A DNA stretch of 13,954 bases, taken from positions 1 to 13,954 of IMG/VR virus record IMGVR_UViG_2778261136_000001; one strand, 5' to 3'. This document shows, in pieces, positions 146-8,437 of this stretch (its first letter is position 1; every line of letters begins with the position of its first letter). Made by a program: the position numbers and the translations under genes. The DNA is from a virus (lineage: Duplodnaviria; Heunggongvirae; Uroviricota; Caudoviricetes). Below the pieces are notes generated by a model. The model was not told the DNA's origin, did not search any database, and saw only the letters and a program-made list of their open reading frames with translations.

Positions 146-679
146 ATGAGCCGGAAATTCCGCTATGGTTTATCAGCTGTCGTTCTGGCGCTGATTGCCG
201 CAGGGGCTTCTGCGCCTGAAATCCTCGACCAGTTTCTTGACGAAAAAGAAGGTAACCACACTACGGCATACCGTGATGGTGCGGGTATCTGGACCATCTG
301 CCGTGGAGCCACCCGGGTGGATGGTAAGCCTGTTATTCCTAGCATGAAGCTGTCGAAGGGGAAATGCGACCAGGTTAACGCCATTGAGCGTGATAAGGCG
401 CTGGCATGGGTGGCGAAAAACATCAAAGTGCCACTGACTGAACCCCAGAAAGCGGGTATTGCGTCATTCTGTCCTTACAACATTGGCCCGGGTAAGTGTT
501 TCAGCTCAACGTTTTACCGGAAACTGAACGCCGGAGACCGTAAAGGCGCATGTGCTGAAATTCGTCGCTGGATATATGACGGTGGTCAGGACTGCCGTAT
601 TCGTTCAAACAACTGTTACGGTCAGGTATCCCGTCGTGACCAGGAGAGCGCGCTGGCGTGCTGGGGTATCGACAGGTAG
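146..679 (+). CDS. R: SAR endolysin (T4-type lysozyme / muramidase, phage 21 R-like)
   Basis: 177-aa ORF with SD GGGGAGAG at 131-138. N-terminus MSRKFRYGLSAVVLALIAAGASAPE is a weakly hydrophobic Gly/Ala-rich signal-anchor-release segment. It is followed by the lysozyme catalytic arrangement E...(8)...D...(5)...T in ...KEGNHTTAYRDGAGIWTICRG. Position immediately after a holin gene. Confidence 0.9.
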   Translation: MSRKFRYGLSAVVLALIAAGASAPEILDQFLDEKEGNHTTAYRDGAGIWTICRGATRVDGKPVIPSMKLSKGKCDQVNAIERDKALAWVAKNIKVPLTEPQKAGIASFCPYNIGPGKCFSSTFYRKLNAGDRKGACAEIRRWIYDGGQDCRIRSNNCYGQVSRRDQESALACWGIDR

Positions 680-814
680 CAGAATATTTTGCTGAAAAAT
701 GACGCTTGCTCACGCGGGCTGATAACACGAAATCCTGCGAACTGGCAAAATGCAAGTGAATAAAGTCAGGAAGATTGTTTCACGCAGAGGCACCGTAATG
801 GTGTCTTTGTCATT

Positions 815-952
815 TCTGCGCTTCGCACAAGCGTAAATAAACCAAAGAACCTTTCAGGATGAGCCCTGGTGGATAACCGGCAGTGGTCTGGTTAACCCTC
901 TTTGGGCTGGTTATTCCTGTGCGCAGGGTTCATCACTAAAAGGAAATAACCG
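815..952 (+). promoter_or_regulatory. Conserved 5' leader element, copy 1 (paralog of 2185..2318), upstream of the antirepressor-like gene
   Basis: Shares with copy 2 a GC hairpin (819-833, CGCTT-CGCAC-AAGCG), a 5' box AGAACCTTTCAGGATGA (846-862), a 3' box GGTTCATCACTAAAAGG (927-943) containing the SD, and the same 9-nt SD-to-ATG spacing with ATGAAT start context. The ~65-nt core between the boxes diverges. Confidence 0.6.
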
Positions 953-1522
953 ATGAATATGATGACCGTGCCGTTTCACGGCGATTCTCTTTATGTGGTT
1001 AACCATAACGGTGAGCCATACGTTCCCATGAAACCTGTCGTTGCGGGGATGGGGCTGGCCTGGCAATCACAGTTGGCTAAGTTAAGACAGCGTTTTGTGT
1101 CAACTATAACGGAAATCGTTATGGTTGCTGAGGATGGGAAACGACGCAATATGGTGTCCCTGCCACTTCGAAAACTTGCAGGCTGGTTACAAACCATCAA
1201 TCCCAACAAAGTAAAACCCGAAATCCGCGACAAGGTAATCCAGTATCAGGAAGAGTGCGACGATGTTCTCTATGAATACTGGACGAAGGGTTTTGTCGTT
1301 AATCCTCGTCAAATGAGCGTGATGGAAGAACTCAATCAGGCCTGCGCTGACATGAAACGGGATAAAAACATTGCCAGTGTGTTTTCTACCGGGCTGAATG
1401 AGTGGAAACAGGTTAAAGCCGCGCATGTATCAAAAATCCGCACATTGATAAACGAAGCGAATCTGCTGATTGATTTTGTCCTGGCTGATACAGGCAAAGG
1501 GAAAATAACAAAGGCGGATTGA
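953..1522 (+). CDS. Antirepressor-like phage regulatory protein (moron inserted between R and Rz)
   Basis: 189-aa ORF with SD AAAAGG 9 nt upstream. N-terminal region MNMMTVPFHGDSLYVVNHNGEPYVPMKPVVAGMGLAWQSQLAKL... resembles, from memory, the N-terminal domain family of P22-type antirepressors found in enterobacterial prophages. The function is not established from sequence alone. Confidence 0.55.
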   Translation: MNMMTVPFHGDSLYVVNHNGEPYVPMKPVVAGMGLAWQSQLAKLRQRFVSTITEIVMVAEDGKRRNMVSLPLRKLAGWLQTINPNKVKPEIRDKVIQYQEECDDVLYEYWTKGFVVNPRQMSVMEELNQACADMKRDKNIASVFSTGLNEWKQVKAAHVSKIRTLINEANLLIDFVLADTGKGKITKAD

Positions 1523-1536
1523 TGGAGTGGTGGCTA

Positions 1537-1671
1537 ATGATATCGGATAAACTCATAACGCTGGCGAAGATTCTCTGTGTAATCGTCGGCATTTCATTTT
1601 TAGTCATGCTGGTTGCCATTTTCTTTTCCACCGCCTGGAGAGTCCTGACGTTATCGGGACTGGTGGGGTGA
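1537..1671 (+). CDS. Small hydrophobic protein (44 aa, predicted single transmembrane helix); not in the supplied ORF track
   Basis: ATG at 1537 with GGAG at 1524-1527, TGA at 1669-1671. Translation MISDKLITLAKILCVIVGISFLVMLVAIFFSTAWRVLTLSGLVG is almost entirely one hydrophobic helix. It fills the gap between the ant-like gene and Rz with no wasted sequence. Coding status is unproven. Confidence 0.35.
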   Translation: MISDKLITLAKILCVIVGISFLVMLVAIFFSTAWRVLTLSGLVG

Positions 1672-1678
1672 AAGAGAG

Positions 1679-2116
1679 ATGAACCGTGTTCTGTGTGTGG
1701 TGATTATTGTCCTGGCGGTTGGCTGTGGTGCGCTGTGGCTGGCAACAAACCATTACCGTGACAACGCGCTCACCTACAAAGCGCAGCGCGATAAAGCCAC
1801 ATCCATCATCGCAGATATGCAGAAGCGGCAACGTGATGTAGCAGAACTTGACGCCAGATACACAAAGGAGCTTGCTGATGCTAATGCGACTATCGAAAGT
1901 CTCCGTGCTGATGTTTCTGCTGGGCGTAAGCGCCTGCAAGTCGCCGCCACCTGTGCAAAGTCAACGACCGGAGCCAGCAGCATGGGCGATGGAGAAAGCC
2001 CAGGACTTACAGCAGATGCTGAACTCAATTATTACCGTCTCAGAAGTGGAATCGACAAGATAACCGCGCAGGTTAACTACCTGCAGGAATACATCAGGAC
2101 GCAATGCCTGAAATAA
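1679..2116 (+). CDS. Rz: Rz inner-membrane spanin (i-spanin)
   Basis: 145-aa ORF with N-terminal TM segment and the motif ATNHYRDNALTYKAQRDK...DARYTKELADA...DVSAGRKRL, which closely parallels lambda Rz (VNHYRDNAITYKAQRDK...AKYTKELADA...DVAAGRRRL) as I recall it. Coiled-coil periplasmic domain. It contains the embedded Rz1 frame. Confidence 0.9.
   Translation: MNRVLCVVIIVLAVGCGALWLATNHYRDNALTYKAQRDKATSIIADMQKRQRDVAELDARYTKELADANATIESLRADVSAGRKRLQVAATCAKSTTGASSMGDGESPGLTADAELNYYRLRSGIDKITAQVNYLQEYIRTQCLK
1878..2063 (+). CDS. Rz1: Rz1 outer-membrane lipoprotein spanin (o-spanin), embedded in the +1 frame of Rz
   Basis: Perfect SD AAGGAG at 1865-1870, 7 nt before ATG 1878. N-terminus MLMRLSKVSVLMFLLGVSAC is a signal peptide ending in a lipobox (VSAC), followed by the Pro-rich mature region KSPPPVQSQRPEP. 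It lies entirely inside Rz in a different frame. The track ORF 1848..2063 is the same frame with an upstream start. Confidence 0.8.
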   Translation: MLMRLSKVSVLMFLLGVSACKSPPPVQSQRPEPAAWAMEKAQDLQQMLNSIITVSEVESTR

Positions 2117-2148
2117 TTTTTTTGCAAATCACAAAGTCCATTTAATGA

Positions 2149-2172
2149 GCCCCGCGATGCGGGGCTTTTTTA
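2149..2172 (+). terminator. Rho-independent terminator after Rz/Rz1
   Basis: Perfect 7-bp GC stem GCCCCGC (2149-2155) / GCGGGGC (2159-2165) with a short loop, followed by TTTTTTAT. Confidence 0.7.
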
Positions 2173-2184
2173 TGTACGCAGTAA

Positions 2185-2318
2185 ACGCGCTTCACACGCG
2201 CGACTTATGAACACAGAACCTTTCAGGATGACCCTTGAGGATGCCGGTTTGGTGATCGGTGCCTTTCTGTGGGCCGGAATCCTGTGTGACAAGGTTCATC
2301 ACTAAAAGGTGTGCACTG
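2185..2318 (+). promoter_or_regulatory. Conserved 5' leader element, copy 2 (paralog of 815..952), upstream of the Rha-family gene
   Basis: Hairpin CGCGC-TTCACAC-GCGCG at 2186-2202, 5' box AGAACCTTTCAGGATGA at 2215-2231, 3' box GGTTCATCACTAAAAGG at 2293-2309, then 9 nt to ATGAAT at 2319. It begins about 13 nt after the Rz terminator. Confidence 0.6.
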
Positions 2319-2861
2319 ATGAATTATCCAACTATCGTTAACGGCATCGATTTTCGAGATCTGATTTTTGTGGCAAACAACGATCCGGTTACAGATTCTT
2401 TTATGGTGGCAAAAGCATTTGGAAAGCTGCCGAAGAACGTAGTTCGTGACATTGAACGAACCATAGAAGCTTGCCCTCCTGAGTTTGATACAAAGCTCAA
2501 CTTTGAGCTTTGCTATAAAAACAATGAGTTACAGAATGGTAAGCCGCAAAAATTCTACCGTCTCCGCAAGGATGGGTTGATGCTTTTGGTTATGTCCTAC
2601 ACCAAAAAAGAAGCAATGCGTATCAAAATTGCTTACATCAACGCATTTAACTGGATGTACGCCATGCTTCAGGTTGGTCATCGTCAATTTGAAGAAGAGA
2701 GAAATGCCGTAATGCTGGAGTACATGAAAGAGAAGGATGTTGCCAGCATGTCAGGTCGCCTGCTAAATCGCTGGGGCAAAATTAAGAAGCCACAGCTGCT
2801 GGCTAGAATTGAACGCCTTGAACAGCACGGGCAAACCGTAATCCCCGGACTCATCAATTAA
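2319..2861 (+). CDS. Rha-family phage regulatory protein
   Basis: The track ORF 2259..2861 starts at GTG and reads through the leader. The likely true start is ATG 2319 (MNYPTIVNG...) with SD AAAAGG at 2304-2309. The region ...NDPVTDSFMVAKAFGKLPKNVVRDIERTIE...KFYRLRKDGLMLLVMSYTKKEAMRIKIAYINAFNWM matches my memory of the Rha regulatory protein family (HTH-like N-terminal domain). Confidence 0.7.
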   Translation: MNYPTIVNGIDFRDLIFVANNDPVTDSFMVAKAFGKLPKNVVRDIERTIEACPPEFDTKLNFELCYKNNELQNGKPQKFYRLRKDGLMLLVMSYTKKEAMRIKIAYINAFNWMYAMLQVGHRQFEEERNAVMLEYMKEKDVASMSGRLLNRWGKIKKPQLLARIERLEQHGQTVIPGLIN

Positions 2862-3019
2862 CGGCAGTACCGCGAAACAACCCAAGCCAGAAAGTGGGGA
2901 AATAACACTGGCAGCCACTGAAAGATGAACCTCCTGCCTTATGGCAAAAAAGATTCTTTGTGGTGGCGGACTGATGGAAAGACATCCTAATCAAGCAACC
3001 ACTCCACAGGGTCATAATT

Positions 3020-3400
3020 ATGAACGACCAGCAAATCGAAAAAGAAATCGTTGAGAAAGGCAAAACGGCACCGCGAATCACCCAGCAGCACATCGAAGAC
3101 GTGATTAAAAGCGAGCATTACTTTACTGCTTATGATGGACGAAATGGTGCCATTTCCAGCAACGAATATTGTGGCAGGGAAAAACCAGAAGAAGGAGATC
3201 GTGATTTATCACCATTGAAGTTGCTCACTTTCTGCGTACTGGTGCTGAAGAATGGCTTCACTGTCACCGGAGAGAGTGCCTGTGCAAGCCCGGAAAACTT
3301 TGATGCAGAAATTGGTCGGAAGATTGCCCGGCAGAATGCTGTAAACAAAATCTGGATGCTCGAAGGTTACTTGCTGAAGCAGAAGCTAAGCGAACAGTAG
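3020..3400 (+). CDS. Small conserved phage protein of unknown function (resembles the family I recall as N4 gp49 / Sf6 gp66-like)
   Basis: 126-aa ORF. The C-terminal part LTFCVLVLKNGFTVTGESACASPENFDAEIGRKIARQNAVNKIWMLEGYLLKQ matches my recollection of a widespread small phage protein family often found near terminase genes. The start codon has a weak SD, so the exact start is uncertain. Confidence 0.5.
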   Translation: MNDQQIEKEIVEKGKTAPRITQQHIEDVIKSEHYFTAYDGRNGAISSNEYCGREKPEEGDRDLSPLKLLTFCVLVLKNGFTVTGESACASPENFDAEIGRKIARQNAVNKIWMLEGYLLKQKLSEQ

Positions 3401-3799
3401 TTATTACAAAAGCCATTCCCTACAGAGTGGCTTTGATAATGGCTTATACCCTACACGGGATAACTTAATTGATATCCTTTTTAACGGATAAAGGCATTTC
3501 AGCCTGACATAGCCATGCGCCGCATCGTCGCCGTATTCCCGCATTAACAGAGACCGCAGCCACCTTATCTGCGTGAGTGTGCGGGGATAATCAAAAACGA
3601 TGCACACCGGGTTTTCTCATTTTTCACGAGATGGGAGCGATTTCCCGCGAAGCCGCCTGTCCGGTGCGGTGGTGGAAGAAACCGGATAAAACAACCGCAT
3701 TGTGCAAATATCGATCAAATATGGTGCTGCTGTGTGAAATCTGAAAAATCACAGCGGTCATTATGCATCAGTTTTTAACACAGGACGTCAGAACGTGAC

Positions 3800-4606
3800 A
3801 TGGCAAAGCTGGACTGGAAAAAGCTGGAGCAGGCATTCCGACGCGAACATGCCGAAACGGGAATAACATTACTGGACTGGTGCCGGAAGAAAAAGATTAA
3901 TTACAACACCGCCAGAACCCGTATAAAAATGGGCAAAATCGATCATGAAATTGATCATAAAACCGATCATGAAATCGATCATGACATCTTAGATGAAGAA
4001 CCCTGCAATGACGCGGGTTCCGGCGATGAAAAATGCGCAAAAAACTCTGAAAAAAACTGCGCAAATTCGGCAGAAACGAAACGGATTCGTGGTTCCCGAC
4101 TTTTACCTCCTTCAAACGCTTTTTCTCAGCGCAACACCCACGCCGTAAGACACCGTGGATATGCGAAGTATCTTGAGGCAGATAACCTCATGGATGATGC
4201 TTCCGACATGGTGCTGTTCGATGAACTGGTGTTCACCCGGGCCCGCGCACTTTCAGTAACTAAGGCACTTAAAGGGATGTTCGCCGACCTGGAAGAGGCA
4301 ACTGACGTGGAAACCCGTGTTGCTCTTTACGACAAAATACTCAAAGCTGAACAGGCCCTTGACCGGAATATTGCCCGTATCGAGTCAATTGAACGCTCAT
4401 TGCTGACGCTGGACGTCCTGGCTGAGACAGCACCAAAACTTCGTGCTGACCGGGAAAGAATCAACGCCGCCAGAGATAAACTCAGAGCTGAAACCGATAT
4501 TCTGACCAGCCAGCGTCGGGGCGTTGTTACGCCTGTCAGTGACATCGTGTCATCGCTGCATGAAATGAGTAATTCGGGGAGACTGGATGACATTCCGGAA
4601 GAATGA
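3800..4606 (+). CDS. terS: Terminase small subunit (putative)
   Basis: 268-aa ORF immediately upstream of, and overlapping by 20 nt, the large terminase gene. The N-terminus (KLEQAFRREHAETGITLLDWCRKKKINYNTARTRIKMGK) looks like a helix-turn-helix DNA-binding region, and the C-terminal half is predicted coiled-coil/oligomerisation. It contains an internal GATC-bearing tandem repeat. Assignment is by position and architecture. Confidence 0.65.
   Translation: MAKLDWKKLEQAFRREHAETGITLLDWCRKKKINYNTARTRIKMGKIDHEIDHKTDHEIDHDILDEEPCNDAGSGDEKCAKNSEKNCANSAETKRIRGSRLLPPSNAFSQRNTHAVRHRGYAKYLEADNLMDDASDMVLFDELVFTRARALSVTKALKGMFADLEEATDVETRVALYDKILKAEQALDRNIARIESIERSLLTLDVLAETAPKLRADRERINAARDKLRAETDILTSQRRGVVTPVSDIVSSLHEMSNSGRLDDIPEE
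3938..3985 (+). repeat. Four tandem 12-bp repeats (ATCGATCATGAA-like), each carrying a GATC, inside terS
   Basis: Units ATCGATCATGAA / ATTGATCATAAA / ACCGATCATGAA / ATCGATCATGAC encode IDHE-IDHK-TDHE-IDHD. GATC occurs at 3941, 3953, 3965 and 3977, exactly 12 bp apart. Confidence 0.9.
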
Positions 4607-6293
4607 ACCGCGATGTGATGAGCCGTCAGAAATGACCGAGGCTGAACAACGTCTGTTCATCATGACTAAACTGAGCAATCCCTGGTGGCGGCTCAATCAT
4701 CTCTACAAAATACAGAACGAAAAAGGTGAACTGGTCACCTTCAGAATGCGACCGGCGCAGCGCCAGTTATTCCGGAGCATGCACAATAAAAATATTATCC
4801 TGAAAGCGCGCCAGCTGGGATTTTCCACAGCCATTGATATTTATCTTCTCGACCAGGCATTATTCATTCCGCATCTCAAATGCGGGATCGTCGCTCAGGA
4901 TAAACAGGCTGCCAGTGAAATTTTCCGCACAAAAATTGCTGTACCGTTTGATCATCTCCCTGACTGGCTGAGAGCCTCATTCACCATCGTTGAACGTCGT
5001 AGCGGTGCCAGCGGTGGCTATATCCTGTTTGGTCACGGCTCGAGTATCCAGGTGGCAACCTCATTCCGTTCAGGTACGGTGCAGCGCCTGCATATCTCAG
5101 AGCACGGCAAAATTTGCGCGAAATATCCGGCTAAGGCGAAAGAACTGCGAACCGGTACGCTTAATGCCGTCTCTGATGAATGCATTATTTTTGATGAGTC
5201 CACAGCTGAAGGCGTGGGTGGTGATTTTTACGAGATGAGTAACCGAGCACAGGAGATCACTGCATCAGGCTTATCGTTGACGGCACAGGATTATAAATTC
5301 CATTTTTACGCCTGGTGGCAGGATCCTAAATACAGCGCCCGAGTGCCGGAAAGCGGGCTGAAGCTGTCACGGGAAAAAATGACGTATTTTTCTGCGGTTG
5401 AGAAGGCAATGAACATCACGCTTACTGATGAACAGAAGCAGTGGTACATCAATAAGGAAACTGAACAGCGTGAGGAAATGAAGCAGGAGTTTCCCTCAAC
5501 GCCACAGGAGGCGTTTCTGACGTCCGGACGACGTGTGTTCAGTGCCGAAAGTACGTTGCAGGCAGAATCATTCTGTTCGCCACCGCTGATTGTTTATGAC
5601 ATTGAACCTGTTACAGGAAGGAAGACTAAAGCGCAGTCTCTGCGTGACGGGAATAAAGCCGAACAGCTCCGGACGCTGATGAATTATCTGCTGGTCTGGG
5701 AGCTACCGGATCCAGATGAAGAGTATGTCTGCGGAGCGGATATTGCTGAGGGGCTTGAGCACGGGGACCGCTCATCGCTGGATATCATCAGATGCAGTAA
5801 TGGTGAGCAGGTGGCCCACTGGTTTGGTCATCTTGATGCGGAGCTTTTTGCTCATCTCATTGCGCAGGTCTGTCGTATGTACAACAACGCGTTTGTGGGG
5901 CCGGAGCGTAACAATCACGGACATGCCGTTATTCTGAAACTCAGGGAGCTCTATCCGACGCGTTATATCTACAACGAACAGCACCTTGATCAGGCATATG
6001 ATGACGATACGCCCCGCCTTGGCTGGCTGACAACCCGTCAGAGCAAACCTGTTCTGACCGAAGGAATGAAAACGCTCCTGAATAATGGAATATCAGGGAT
6101 CCGCTGGTCAGGCACATTATCGGAAATGAACACCTACGTTTATGACGCGAAAGGCTCCATGAATGCACAGGAAGGCTGTTTTGATGATCAACTCATGAGC
6201 TACATGATTGCCCAGGAGATGCGCGCCAGAATGCCTGTGAGGGTAAAACAGAAAACGGATAAACGCAGAACTACACACTGGATGGCTCACTGA
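4587..6293 (+). CDS. terL: Terminase large subunit
   Basis: 568-aa ORF with SD GGGAGA at 4574-4579. The N-terminal ATPase region carries a deviant Walker A-like KARQLGFST, and the acidic C-terminal half fits a nuclease domain. It is followed by the portal gene with an ATGA stop/start overlap. An alternative start at ATG 4632 is possible. Confidence 0.85.
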   Translation: MTFRKNEPRCDEPSEMTEAEQRLFIMTKLSNPWWRLNHLYKIQNEKGELVTFRMRPAQRQLFRSMHNKNIILKARQLGFSTAIDIYLLDQALFIPHLKCGIVAQDKQAASEIFRTKIAVPFDHLPDWLRASFTIVERRSGASGGYILFGHGSSIQVATSFRSGTVQRLHISEHGKICAKYPAKAKELRTGTLNAVSDECIIFDESTAEGVGGDFYEMSNRAQEITASGLSLTAQDYKFHFYAWWQDPKYSARVPESGLKLSREKMTYFSAVEKAMNITLTDEQKQWYINKETEQREEMKQEFPSTPQEAFLTSGRRVFSAESTLQAESFCSPPLIVYDIEPVTGRKTKAQSLRDGNKAEQLRTLMNYLLVWELPDPDEEYVCGADIAEGLEHGDRSSLDIIRCSNGEQVAHWFGHLDAELFAHLIAQVCRMYNNAFVGPERNNHGHAVILKLRELYPTRYIYNEQHLDQAYDDDTPRLGWLTTRQSKPVLTEGMKTLLNNGISGIRWSGTLSEMNTYVYDAKGSMNAQEGCFDDQLMSYMIAQEMRARMPVRVKQKTDKRRTTHWMAH

Positions 6294-8437
6294 TGAAAAA
6301 TGAAACTAACACCATGGCGACGAAAAACGACAATGGAGCCACGCCGCGTTTTTCTCAGCGCCAGTTACAGGCGCTTTGTTCTGATATTGACAGCCAGCCT
6401 AAATGGCGTGATGCCGCAAACAAGGCCTGTGCGTATTACGATGGCGATCAGTTGCCACCGGAAGTTCTTCAGGTACTGAAAGATCGCGGTCAGCCGATGA
6501 CTATCCATAACCTCATCGCGCCTACCGTCGATGGCGTTCTGGGAATGGAGGCCAAAACACGGACTGATCTGGTGGTGATGTCAGACGAGCCAGATGATGA
6601 AACTGAAAAACTGGCTGAAGCTATTAATGCTGAATTTGCCGATGCATGCCGCCTTGGCAATATGAATAAAGCCCGCTCTGATGCCTATGCGGAACAAATC
6701 AAGGCGGGCCTCAGTTGGGTGGAGGTCAGACGAAACAGCGATCCGTTCGGGCCTGAATTTAAGGTGTCTACTGTCAGCCGGAATGAGGTTTTCTGGGACT
6801 GGCTGAGCCGGGAGGCTGATTTAAGTGACTGCCGCTGGCTGATGCGTCGCCGCTGGATGGATACCGATGAGGCAAAAGCTACATTCCCGGGAATGGCTCA
6901 GGTTATCGATTATGCCATTGATGACTGGCGTGGTTTTGTCGATAGCACGGTTACTGAAGGCCAGCCCAGTCCGTTGATGAGTGCATGGGAAGAGTATCAG
7001 TCATGGGATCGACAGCAGAACGAATGGCTTCAGCGTGAACGCCGTCGTGTGCTGCTTCAGGTGGTTTATTACCGTACATTCGAGCGTCTTCCGGTGATTG
7101 AACTCAGTAATGGACGGGTGGTGGCCTTTGATAAAAATAATCTGATGCAGGCGGTAGCTGTGGCATCCGGGCGGGTTCAGGTGAAAGTCGGGCGGGTAAG
7201 CCGTATTCGTGAAGCCTGGTTTGTCGGGCCACACTTTATTGTGGATCGCCCCTGTAGTGCTCCGCAGGGGATGTTTCCGCTGGTTCCTTTCTGGGGATAC
7301 CGAAAGGATAAAACCGGGGAGCCATACGGGCTAATTTCCCGCGCCATTCCGGCACAGGATGAGGTGAATTTTCGTCGTATCAAGCTGACCTGGTTGCTTC
7401 AGGCCAAACGCGTGATTATGGACGAGGATGCCACCCAGTTGTCAGACAACGACCTGATGGAGCAGATCGAACGTCCGGATGGCATTATTAAACTGAATCC
7501 GGTCCGAAAAAATCAGAAAAGTGTCGCAGATGTTTTTCGGGTTGAGCAGGATTTTCAGGTTGCCAGCCAGCAGTTTCAGGTCATGCAGGAATCGGAAAAA
7601 CTTATCCAGGATACCATGGGAGTGTATTCCGCATTTCTCGGGCAGGAGTCAGGTGCGACGTCAGGCGTGGCTATCAGTAACCTGGTGGAGCAGGGGGCCA
7701 CAACCCTTGCGGAAATCAACGATAACTACCAGTTTGCCTGCCAGCAGGTGGGAAGACTGTTGCTGGCTTATCTTCTCGATGACCTGAAAAAACGCCGTAA
7801 TCATGCAGTAGTGATTAATCGCGATGATCGTCAGCGTCGCCAGACCATTGTCCTCAATGCTGAAGGTGATAATGGTGAACTGACCAATGATATTTCAAGG
7901 TTAAATACACATATTGCGCTGGCTCCTGTTCAGCAGACACCTGCGTTTAAGGCACAGCTTGCACAGAGAATGTCAGAGGTTATTCAGGGGCTGCCGCCTC
8001 AGGTGCAGGCTGTTGTGCTCGACCTGTGGGTTAATCTTCTGGATGTGCCGCAGAAACAGGAGTTTGTTGAGCGTATTCGTGCTGCGCTGGGGACGCCAAA
8101 ATCACCGGATGAAATGACGCCGGAAGAACAGGAAGTAGCGGCACAACAACAGGCACTTCAGCAACAACAGGCAGAACTCCAGATGCGCGAGATGGCTGGC
8201 AGAGTGGCAAAACTGGAAGCTGACGCCGCCAGGGCTCATGCTGCTGCACAACGGGATAATGCCAGTGCACAGCGGGAAGTTGCCCTGACACAGGGGCAGC
8301 GTTATGTGGATGCGCTTAACCAGGCACATACGGCAGAAATCATTACCGGCATACAGAATATGGAACAGGAGCAGGACGTTCTTCAGCAACAGATGCTGTA
8401 TACGTTACAACAGCGGATGAATGAAATGTCGCTCTGA
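6293..8437 (+). CDS. Portal protein, with a Gln-rich C-terminal coiled-coil extension
   Basis: 714-aa ORF directly after terL (TGATGA overlap). The size and the long C-terminal helical Gln/Ala-rich tail (...AAQQQALQQQQAELQMREMAGRVAKLEADAARAHAAAQ...) are reminiscent of P22-type portals with a C-terminal barrel. Assignment is by position, size and composition. Confidence 0.8.
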   Translation: MKNETNTMATKNDNGATPRFSQRQLQALCSDIDSQPKWRDAANKACAYYDGDQLPPEVLQVLKDRGQPMTIHNLIAPTVDGVLGMEAKTRTDLVVMSDEPDDETEKLAEAINAEFADACRLGNMNKARSDAYAEQIKAGLSWVEVRRNSDPFGPEFKVSTVSRNEVFWDWLSREADLSDCRWLMRRRWMDTDEAKATFPGMAQVIDYAIDDWRGFVDSTVTEGQPSPLMSAWEEYQSWDRQQNEWLQRERRRVLLQVVYYRTFERLPVIELSNGRVVAFDKNNLMQAVAVASGRVQVKVGRVSRIREAWFVGPHFIVDRPCSAPQGMFPLVPFWGYRKDKTGEPYGLISRAIPAQDEVNFRRIKLTWLLQAKRVIMDEDATQLSDNDLMEQIERPDGIIKLNPVRKNQKSVADVFRVEQDFQVASQQFQVMQESEKLIQDTMGVYSAFLGQESGATSGVAISNLVEQGATTLAEINDNYQFACQQVGRLLLAYLLDDLKKRRNHAVVINRDDRQRRQTIVLNAEGDNGELTNDISRLNTHIALAPVQQTPAFKAQLAQRMSEVIQGLPPQVQAVVLDLWVNLLDVPQKQEFVERIRAALGTPKSPDEMTPEEQEVAAQQQALQQQQAELQMREMAGRVAKLEADAARAHAAAQRDNASAQREVALTQGQRYVDALNQAHTAEIITGIQNMEQEQDVLQQQMLYTLQQRMNEMSL

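Follow-up and report, generated by a model that had tools for sequence, protein, structure and literature searches.

The Pfam family PF13876, named after N4 gp49 and Sf6 gp66, was defined in 2024 as the Acb4 anti-CBASS family of tetrameric cyclic-dinucleotide sponges, with 1,331 listed members and a crystal structure of the SPO1 Acb4 tetramer with 3'3'-cGAMP (bioRxiv 10.1101/2024.12.30.630793). Its founding member is Acb4 of the Bacillus phage SPO1 (PDB 9E4W). According to the same study, the homotetramer forms a pinwheel with four inter-subunit pockets, the eight homologues modelled by the authors were all predicted as tetramers, and 3'3'-cGAMP was bound by each of the eight diverse homologues tested, c-di-GMP by none. 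N4 gp49 binds c-di-AMP (Kd 111 nM) and sets off PanDA, a guard system that fires upon c-di-AMP sequestration. Across SPO1 Acb4, the eight homologues and N4 gp49, experiments have thus covered nanomolar capture of CBASS cyclic dinucleotides and the rescue of phages from CBASS. The Rha protein is known from old genetics, where it inhibits phage growth in IHF-deficient hosts, a phenotype that leaves its molecular role undefined.

The window analysed here, 13,954 nt of viral DNA, belongs to a Stx1a-converting lambdoid prophage that is 100% identical to the Stx1a prophage of E. coli O43 RM10042. It carries rha (ORF A, 180 aa) and a second gene for a 126-aa protein (ORF B) between Rz and terS. In the RM10042 prophage, RefSeq gives these two genes the names 'Rha family transcriptional regulator' and, for the second, 'Gp49 family protein'. 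We consider it likely that the two are independent and dispensable genes of the late operon, ORF B encoding a predicted Acb4-family sponge and ORF A being a P22/phi80-type rha.

The interval between the lysis and packaging genes

Both ORFs are genuine conserved genes, and chance ORFs are excluded. The original prediction had placed a Rha-family gene and a 126-aa gene between the lysis genes and terS, and its coordinates proved exact to the base, with endolysin, Rz, terS, terL and portal as the flanks (Table 1). The arrangement of Rz, rha and packaging genes was found in most of the 80 related loci, each with a Rha at least 88% identical, that made up our comparison set.

Table 1. Features of the window from the endolysin to the portal gene
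Feature	Position	Strand	Remarks
Endolysin	146-679		Lysis side
Second leader copy	798..961	+	Precedes the ant-like gene within the lysis cassette; direct repeats, model R1
Ant-like gene	953..1522	+	Bro network; P22_AR_N and ORF11CD3 domain matches; C-terminal domain type and leader type as in rha
Rz	1679-2116		
Intrinsic terminator	2147..2175	+	Directly 3' of Rz; GAGCCCCGC-GAT-GCGGGGCTT, then a T-run; terminator scan
rha leader RNA	2167..2327	+	Covariance model R1, MFE fold, covariation
rha (ORF A)	2319..2861	+	ATG 2319, TAA 2861; 180 aa
rha-distal spacer	2862..2986	+	Conserved; alignments with POCJ13 and P22
acb4 cassette	2987..3400	+	414 bp; exact presence/absence in relatives
acb4 homologue (ORF B)	3020..3400	+	ATG 3020, TAG 3400; 126 aa
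Non-coding spacer upstream of terS	3401..3799	+	Alignment with POCJ13 and P13374
terS	3800-4606		phrog_370
terL	4587-6293		
Portal	6293-8437		

The terminator behind Rz, which has a 9-bp stem with seven GC pairs in the terminator scan, is conserved in POCJ13, P13374 and P22. Expression of rha and acb4 would require read-through of this element, presumably by Q-modified RNA polymerase. A crude promoter scan revealed no sigma-70-like promoter between the terminator and rha and none that was convincing for acb4 either, which lends no support to 'moron'-like expression of the genes on their own in the prophage. The spacer of ~125 nt that follows rha is 97-99% identical in most of the 80 loci and is kept also in relatives without acb4; the 3' end of rha and this spacer jointly correspond to the 5' portion of P22G, a small RNA of P22. 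The region upstream of acb4 (2840-3030), which includes this spacer, displayed no significant RNA structure (z -0.9). Between acb4 and terS, the final ~313 bp of the non-coding spacer are nearly invariant in POCJ13 and P13374, with a handful of substitutions; this spacer, for which no Rfam match was obtained, may be a terS leader or a packaging-site region. None of the PADLOC models matched Rha, Acb4, Ant or a 50-aa ORF, so these are not components of known defence systems.

Rha and its leader RNA

ORF A matched Pfam Phage_pRha (PF09669; E 1.7e-21, 77 bits, cut-off 29.9), ORF11CD3 (E 4.7e-26, 91 bits), NCBIfam TIGR02681 (84.8 bits against 45.95) and phrog_518 (2e-81). The protein consists of an N-terminal winged-helix-like Phage_pRha domain (residues ~16-118) and a C-terminal helical ORF11CD3 domain (residues ~125-176), which appear in the AF2 model (pLDDT 82) as a wHTH-like part with a helix-helix-hairpin layout and two long helices. 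Foldseek on AlphaFold models, a check that came with the original prediction, connected the 126-aa protein to 9E4W and gave no significant PDB match for Rha (best E 0.27), with weak PadR/MarR-type wHTH matches (E 0.27-3, probability at most 0.3). The BFVD matches of the Rha model were all uncharacterised proteins of the Rha, antirepressor or Bro-N type, and the Rha sequence, when searched against the PDB, retrieved chance-level matches only.

Rha of the window and that of P22 are 55% identical overall, the C-terminal ~60 aa being nearly identical and the N-terminal winged-helix-like domain only ~40% identical, suggesting that the DNA or partner specificity of the window protein may differ. The same gradient is seen when conservation is taken by part, with 80% for ORF11CD3 versus 58-61% for the wHTH-like part. 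ORF A is an orthologue, mosaic in make-up, of the classical rha/ORF201 of P22, with which it has the slot, the leader, the C-terminal domain and the 3' flank in common, and the rha gene of the window adds nothing new by itself. The ant-like protein also contains an ORF11CD3 region (26 bits), 29% identical to that of Rha, while the N-domains of the two differ, Phage_pRha in Rha versus P22_AR_N in the ant-like protein. The combination of ORF11CD3 with a swappable, putatively DNA-binding N-terminal domain places Rha in the Bro network.

The rha gene is preceded by a leader of ~140 nt that ends at its ATG and folds into a short GC hairpin followed by a ~100-nt hairpin, at the base of which the AAAGG Shine-Dalgarno (about 2306-2310) is paired with CCUUU (about 2209-2213). 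As the long hairpin buries the ribosome-binding site, translation of rha is probably gated. Covariance model R1 scored 178 bits on this leader and 142 bits on that of the ant-like gene; the two were also detected as direct repeats, covariation was observed in 24 of the 33 pairs, and the fold of the ant-like gene leader has a z-score of -3.1 to -3.8. In other phages, this leader also stands before KilA-N genes and HNH genes, and the rha copy is homologous to the P22 small RNA P22F. POCJ13 has an annotated mini-ORF of 32 hydrophobic codons here (2208-2306), which we rejected as a gene, for its frame is interrupted by stops and frameshifts in the copies of 933W, ECP1 and Klebsiella 2b, while their nucleotide sequence and pairing are kept. 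Rfam over the whole window returned nothing at the gathering threshold and hence no match for the leader; the only match at E <= 5, a sub-threshold asX2 that overlaps the Rz terminator on the minus strand, was taken as spurious. Homology to IsrK or C4 was likewise rejected, given that RF01394, RF01695 and RF03163 (isrK, C4, c4-a1b1) match the Gifsy-1 anrP leader and never the window, even at E <= 5; model R1 in turn gives no match in Gifsy-1. It is quite possible, if somewhat short of probable, that the leader represents an undescribed cis-regulatory RNA family which gates translation of a Bro-network regulator in the late transcript and is processed to a stable small RNA, in parallel with IsrK/C4 and unrelated to them.

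Rha, transcribed through read-through of the terminator after Rz, would most likely be a dispensable protein of the regulator or antirepressor type that acts on DNA of phage, co-resident prophage or satellite origin. P22 rha carries the RefSeq label 'anti-repressor', and among PHROG relatives the annotation is antirepressor too. Regulation of other elements is frequent for Bro-network proteins, examples being the ORF6N protein AnrP of Gifsy-1 and CapR of PLE, and Gifsy antirepressors work in trans on other prophages (PMC3121763). Read in this way, Rha would be a true antirepressor that is made late in the lytic cycle of a phage in polylysogenic STEC, where it binds and inactivates repressors that belong to co-resident prophages or satellites, leading to cross-induction. 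However, the name given to P22 rha is an annotation label, and the Rha domain resembles a DNA-binding wHTH, unlike the small repressor-binding Gifsy proteins; we hold a true antirepressor to be rather unlikely.

ORF B and the Acb4 family

ORF B matched the whole Pfam profile PF13876 (Phage_gp49_66; positions 1-82 of 82) with E 4.1e-35 and 120.6 bits, the gathering score being 27, and also phrog_322. It is 98% identical to Sf6 gp66, 45% to N4 gp49/Acb4 and only 27% to SPO1 Acb4, and the published Acb4 family table includes Sf6 gp66 as well as E. coli sequences that are 1-2 residues off ORF B. A phmmer search reached 9E4W at E 0.006, and the best 13 Foldseek matches of the AF2 model (pLDDT 89) in the PDB were all 9E4W chains (probability 1.0, E 1e-3 to 5e-3, target TM 0.60-0.68), the first match after them having an E of 0.26. 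The model follows the element order H-H-E-(H-H insert)-E-E-H and contains the core fold of SPO1 Acb4, namely three antiparallel strands with flanking helices and then a long C-terminal helix. ORF B is an Acb4-family protein, with family membership and fold established here.

The 126-aa protein had been put down as one of unknown function with no mechanism assignable from sequence. Neither statement stands, since membership in PF13876/Acb4 permits a mechanism to be assigned by homology; we infer the oligomeric state, the ligand and the anti-CBASS activity of ORF B from its characterised homologues. The protein would assemble into a homotetramer whose inter-subunit pockets take up cyclic dinucleotides from CBASS cyclases, 3'3'-cGAMP-type signals and probably also c-di-AMP, as in Gram-negative homologues such as N4 gp49. 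With the signal sequestered, the CBASS effector would stay off and the lytic cycle could be completed. Homologues of ORF B are also fused to other sponges, Tad2 (P0101) and Sequestin PF21825 (P0113), and sponge fusions of such kind have already been described in the literature. Of the accessory roles that had been suggested for both genes, anti-defence agrees with the 126-aa protein being an Acb4-family member; for Rha nothing we found speaks for exclusion or anti-defence.

We compared the ligand contacts of SPO1 Acb4 (K36, F48, E49, V56, Y57, F62, N63, I66, T70, and K81) with ORF B. Three of the ten are identical, F48, F62 and I66, corresponding to F80, F94 and I98 in ORF B, and the remaining positions are occupied by L68, T81, C88, A89, D95, I102 and M113. 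The changes affect the guanine-reading K36 and E49 as well as the phosphate contacts Y57, T70 and K81; the contact of N63 in SPO1 Acb4 runs via its backbone. ORF B furthermore contains a helical insert of ~30 aa (residues 37-68) between beta1 and beta2, its least conserved part, with 58% mean and 25% minimum identity versus 87% for the core. In SPO1 Acb4 a beta1-beta2 loop with K36 takes the place of this insert, which makes the ligand specificity of ORF B uncertain.

These seven altered contacts and the variable insert at the position of the K36 loop, together with the remarks of the Acb4 authors on possible additional functions of the extensions seen in some homologues and on the likeness of the fold to dsRNA-binding domains (bioRxiv 10.1101/2024.12.30.630793), raise the question of whether ORF B combines an Acb4 fold with a diverged job, such as capture of another signal (cyclic trinucleotides, Thoeris gcADPR-type molecules or host c-di-GMP) or dsRBD-like binding of RNA. 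We find this improbable. The binding profile of the eight tested homologues, uniform for 3'3'-cGAMP and blank for c-di-GMP, argues against it, and the nanomolar c-di-AMP binder N4 gp49 has the same Thr and Cys as ORF B (T81 and C88) at the E49 and V56 positions. In addition, the core is ~58% identical to N4 gp49 by a hand count on the alignment, and in the pocket the stacking and hydrophobic residues, F80, F94 and I98, are kept. Weaker than the proposal of a new leader RNA family is the possibility that enterobacterial Acb4 proteins, as predicted cyclic-dinucleotide sponges, have their choice of alarm nucleotides altered by the hypervariable insert, which could be a response to guards such as PanDA.

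Accessory status and relation to known systems

The view of the lysis-terS interval as a hotspot for accessory cargo was borne out, as its content differs among relatives. The acb4 cassette is occupied in 12 of the 80 loci; most of the others have an empty junction, which in P22 and POCJ13 joins GGAAAGACATC directly to GGTTATTGCAGAGGCC, and a minority lack detectable flanking sequence. Other phages carry Tad2-like, KilA-N or small genes in place of rha, and in phage Huey a Tad2-like gene sits at the position of rha immediately upstream of acb4. Comparative genomics of the slot, which had been suggested along with the original prediction, therefore reveals exchange in the place of rha and presence or absence of the 414-bp cassette, and bears out the view that neither gene is needed for lysis or packaging. 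From these comparisons, both rha and acb4 are accessory. They assort independently among relatives and do not form a functional pair.

A role of Rha in DNA packaging or on host nucleoid functions would account for both its terS-side position and its IHF-dependent toxicity. The gene lies directly upstream of the packaging genes whatever terminase type follows, the classical phenotype is IHF-dependent, and the C-terminal domain is nearly invariant across phages, suggesting a conserved and possibly host partner. Nevertheless, many phages with the same terminase modules lack rha (933W, Sf6, Huey), from which it follows that Rha is not a required packaging factor, and we regard such a role as very unlikely. 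That both products are fixed structural or packaging cofactors, the finding named in advance as one that would overturn an accessory reading, has nothing more than the location next to terS in its favour and can practically be dismissed, considering that the presence of both genes varies among near-identical phages, that both occur with unrelated terminase types, and that family membership suggests a nucleotide sponge for the one and a DNA-binding regulator for the other.

Two independent accessory genes, a predicted sponge and a P22/phi80-type rha, thus remain our preferred reading, and both proteins are of already known kinds. For annotation, genes that Stx, P22-like and other lambdoid prophages carry under the label 'Gp49 family protein' or 'hypothetical protein' can be renamed 'Acb4-family anti-CBASS sponge'; close DNA relatives of acb4 are present in 527 of 5,426 complete E. 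coli genomes (~10%). An optional anti-CBASS sponge in Shiga-toxin phages could shape which E. coli strains become productively infected, and such a CBASS-linked host range could in turn affect the spread of stx. Phages of this kind that carry a sponge would at the same time become targets of sponge-sensing guard systems. The conserved rha leader offers a direct handle on Bro-network regulators that would be silent and then released in the late phase.

Among the described systems, the sponges found in the same slot (the Huey Tad2-like protein, PF11195, and the Tad2-Acb4 and Sequestin-Acb4 fusions) are likewise small anti-signalling proteins that adjoin or are fused to acb4. They differ from ORF B in fold and ligand (Thoeris gcADPR), and the window has rha at that place instead of a second sponge. 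The rha leader resembles the IsrK-orf45-anrP system of Gifsy-1 and the c4/C4 RNA-icd-ant system of P1/P7 in that a structured leader before a Bro-network gene hides a ribosome-binding site, and in that a stable small RNA accumulates from it (P22F in P22). In contrast to these systems, the window pairs the regulator's own Shine-Dalgarno within one long hairpin, with no conserved upstream ORF, and the leaders share neither sequence nor model homology. For rha of P22 (ORF201) and phi80, the order of the genomic slot is the same (Rz, terminator, leader, rha and then the packaging genes) and rha is a dispensable late-operon gene downstream of the lysis genes; the leader RNA type, the near-identical ORF11CD3 domain and the 3' flank are shared as well. 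Relative to SPO1 Acb4, ORF B has an N-terminal extension, the variable helical insert between beta1 and beta2, and altered base-specific and phosphate-contacting residues. With SPO1 Acb4 and N4 gp49 it has in common the Pfam match, the core fold, the small size of a phage-encoded protein and the aromatic and hydrophobic pocket residues, and its near-identical counterpart Sf6 gp66 is one of the two proteins that gave PF13876 its name.

Gene order and expression

The window comes from a lambdoid, 933W-like Shiga-toxin prophage. Between positions 2100 and 3850 it is 100% identical to chromosomal DNA of E. coli O43 RM10042 and RM10410; in RM10042, Q, stx1AB, holin and lysozyme genes precede this region, and terS, terL, portal and a capsid gene of N4-gp56 type follow it. 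The original prediction had given the coordinates of both slot genes, ORF A (rha) and ORF B (acb4 homologue), exactly: the same ORFs were recovered, both have profile matches, and RefSeq carries the same two genes in RM10042. Both are already known kinds of protein.

Features of the region from endolysin to terS
Feature	Position	Strand	Remarks
Endolysin	146-679	+	
Leader copy, ~140 nt	about 798-961	+	upstream of Ant-like gene
Ant-like gene (P22_AR_N + ORF11CD3)	953-1522	+	
50-codon ORF, phrog_4906	1519-1671	+	hydrophobic
Rz	1679-2116	+	
Strong intrinsic terminator	2147-2175	+	directly 3' of Rz
Leader copy, ~140 nt	about 2167-2327	+	upstream of rha
ORF A (rha)	2319-2861	+	ATG 2319, TAA 2861, 180 aa
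ORF B (acb4)	3020-3400	+	ATG 3020, TAG 3400, 126 aa
Spacer, 400 bp	between ORF B and terS		
terS	3800-4606	+	then terL, portal

The Ant-like gene and the 50-codon ORF (953-1671) sit inside the lysis cassette, between endolysin and Rz, as they do in 933W and P13374, and the 933W annotation of this insert proposes "possible regulation of host cell lysis". A scan upstream of rha and acb4 found no sigma-70-like promoter; together with the strong terminator after Rz, this makes it the simplest reading that both genes would be transcribed late, via Q-antiterminated read-through past that terminator.

Immediately upstream of terS, ~313 bp (3487-3799) are essentially invariant in POCJ13 and P13374, with a handful of substitutions, and the DNA just 5' of them varies. 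The stretch 3487-3799 has no notable ORF and gave no Rfam match; it could be a terS leader or packaging-recognition region. In terS itself, repeated GATCATGAAAT(T/C)GATCAT units encode a short tandem peptide repeat, KIDHEIDHKTDHEIDHD, in the N-terminal region of the protein (residues ~46-63; 3935-3990).

ORF B as an Acb4-family protein

ORF B aligns with the whole PF13876 "Phage_gp49_66" profile (E 4.1e-35) and also matches phrog_322; searching PDB sequences with it gave one match, "anti-CBASS 4 (Acb4)" 9E4W (E 0.006). A model built from 40 homologues (pLDDT 89) was compared with the PDB by Foldseek, in which the top 13 matches were all 9E4W chains (prob 1.0, target TM 0.60-0.68), the first other match following at E 0.26. 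ORF B shares 98% identity with Sf6 gp66, 45% with N4 Acb4 and 27% with SPO1 Acb4; moreover, Table S3 of Chang et al. includes Sf6 gp66 (Q716B1) and E. coli entries one or two residues from ORF B (bioRxiv 10.1101/2024.12.30.630793). Because of the PF13876 match, the 9E4W matches and the identities to characterised homologues, we regard family membership and the predicted Acb4 fold as established at the level of sequence and model. The 126-aa protein, originally put down as of unknown function, can now carry the name Acb4-family anti-CBASS sponge, and for this gene the earlier guess of an anti-defence role is borne out as far as homology goes.

SPO1 Acb4, a 96-aa protein of the 1,331-member family PF13876, forms a pinwheel tetramer that takes four 3'3'-cGAMP (Kd ~157 nM) and inhibits CBASS in vitro and in vivo; all eight Acb4 homologues tested bound cGAMP and none c-di-GMP, and those from phages of Gram-negative hosts bound c-di-AMP too (bioRxiv 10.1101/2024.12.30.630793). 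N4 gp49, the other namesake of the Pfam family, binds c-di-AMP at 111 nM, thereby triggering the PanDA guard system (10.64898/2026.08.10.743972). For ORF B itself, we treat the tetramer, the ligand and any anti-CBASS activity as putative. Among the ten contact residues of SPO1 Acb4, the stacking and hydrophobic contacts F80, F94 and I98 are kept in ORF B, whereas the base-specific and phosphate contacts are not conserved; the positions of E49 and V56 hold T and C, as in N4 Acb4. Compared with SPO1 Acb4, ORF B is also extended at its N-terminus and carries, between beta1 and beta2, a helical insert of ~30 residues (37-68; window 3128-3223), which replaces the SPO1 loop bearing the guanine-reading K36. 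Conservation within the protein is lowest in this insert (mean identity 58%, minimum 25%, compared with 87% and 78% for the core), which may tune ligand specificity. The insert is hypervariable among enterobacterial Acb4 alleles, which is why DNA matches to acb4 are split in other E. coli genomes.

rha, acb4 and the content of the slot

ORF A is a classical rha gene. It matches Phage_pRha (E 1.7e-21), ORF11CD3 (E 4.7e-26), TIGR02681 and phrog_518; in P22, gene 15 (Rz) is followed by a terminator, rha (ORF201), orf25, orf80 and gene 3, and the DNA 3' of the rha stop codon is co-linear with P22 as far as window 2986. Window and P22 Rha are 55% identical overall, almost identical in the C-terminal ~60 residues (ORF11CD3) but only ~40% in the N-terminal domain; likewise, the ORF11CD3 part is best conserved among 42 Rha homologues (80%, against 58-61% for the winged-helix part). 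The AF2 model (pLDDT 82) predicts an N-domain helix-helix-beta-hairpin followed by two long helices. No significant match was found among solved structures, PadR and MarR-type proteins coming closest (E at least 0.27); among predicted viral structures it matched Rha, antirepressor, Bro-N or KilA "regulatory proteins", whose functions come from annotation. In phi80 and P22, rha is a late-operon gene whose product prevents phages from growing in hosts deficient in IHF. A regulatory role is presumed for Rha domains, and Rha belongs to a domain-swapping "Bro network" (ANT, Bro-N, KilA-N, ORF11CD3, ORF6N, P22_AR_N/C, Phage_ASH, Phage_pRha). The literature found gives only this late-operon/IHF phenotype, presumed regulation and network membership; we therefore read Rha, with modest confidence, as a non-essential DNA-binding regulator or antirepressor-type protein.

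Relatives fill the slot differently. The slot holds rha without acb4 in POCJ13 and in P13374, the O104:H4 phage, and acb4 without rha in Sf6; in 933W it holds neither, with bor after Rz. In Huey, a Tad2-like Thoeris sponge gene (PF11195, E 1.7e-24; L004 1930-2430) occupies the rha position directly upstream of acb4, while mEpX1 has a KilA-N/P63C gene, then acb4. Phages with and without acb4 differ by a clean 414-bp indel (window 2987-3400), and P22 and POCJ13 share the empty junction, which reads GGAAAGACATC joined to GGTTATT. Across 80 IMG/VR loci encoding Rha at least 88% identical, acb4 lies directly 3' of rha in 12 (five with a 98-99% allele, seven with a 73-75% allele), and most of the others have the empty junction; a DUF2560/orf80-like gene follows in 40 of these loci, then at least five unrelated terS types. 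Close DNA relatives of acb4 occur in 527 of 5,426 complete E. coli genomes, and 642 phage records, spread over many genera, contain homologues by tblastn. Fusions also occur among homologues of ORF B (P0101, P0113), namely Tad2-Acb4 (PF11195 + PF13876) and Sequestin-Acb4 (PF21825 + PF13876).

This slot acts as a sponge-gene hotspot. In agreement with the original prediction, both genes are accessory, as slot content varies among relatives and acb4 shows clean presence/absence; the slot comparisons speak against fixed structural or packaging cofactors. They are independent of each other and form no joint system.

A conserved leader RNA upstream of rha and the Ant-like gene

We consider a conserved leader RNA the most interesting item of the region. 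The ~140 nt ahead of rha (about 2183-2324) and those ahead of the Ant-like gene (about 815-958) are homologous. In the fold of each, a short GC hairpin precedes a ~100-nt hairpin, at whose base an AAAGG Shine-Dalgarno pairs with CCUUU. By blastn, the leader occurs in 305 phage records, always just 5' of a gene: in the cases where this gene was inspected, it was ant in 933W, Rha-type genes in SPN9CC and Oslo, KilA-N genes in Klebsiella phage 2b, mEpX1 and locus L078, an HNH_3 gene in ECP1 and an uncharacterised 242-aa ORF in locus L079. The regions 5' of rha in the 80 Rha loci comprise at least four sequence types. Single-sequence folding, which is independent of covariance model R1, gave the same shape for 21 of 21 representatives (z -1.1 to -4.0). 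R1, built from six leader copies, matched at full length and on the plus strand 40 times in 39 sources; the window holds exactly two of these matches. In the alignment fitted to R1, 94.8% of cells are paired (82.3% in the shuffled and 33-47% in the slid control), 24 of 33 pairs are changed on both sides (11.7 and 1-8), and the covariation score is 0.389 (0.159 and at most 0.074). The apparent role of the leader is to gate the translation of both rha and ant.

A small ORF within the leader (window 2208-2306) was rejected as a gene, since its reading frame is not conserved. Several coding sequences annotated in public records also lie inside the non-coding leader and are probable annotation errors, namely a POCJ13 "hypothetical protein" (L002 2608-2742) and 25 codons at the start of both the mEpX1 KilA-N gene (L005 2149-2223) and P22 ORF201; the ATG that directly follows the leader is the conserved start codon.

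Rfam gave no match to the element, and among the papers searched by sequence string, PMC13397905 was the sole match. The leader corresponds to the 89-nt P22 small RNA "P22F" described there, which ends a few nt before the rha start codon (PMC13397905). Another P22 RNA, P22G (204 nt; L014 ~1290-1500), runs from the rha 3' end through the spacer and across the exact empty acb4 junction, equivalent to window 2805-2990 and 3401-3420 (PMC13397905). No significant structure was predicted for this region in the window (z -0.9), and in acb4-positive phages a P22G-type RNA would be interrupted or become the acb4 5' UTR. The nearest known analogue of the leader is the isrK-orf45-anrP leader of Gifsy-1, where AnrP is an ORF6N Bro-network protein. 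Since the Gifsy-1 leader matches the Rfam models isrK, C4 and c4-a1b1 but not R1, the rha/ant leader is analogous, rather than homologous, to this IsrK/C4-type leader.
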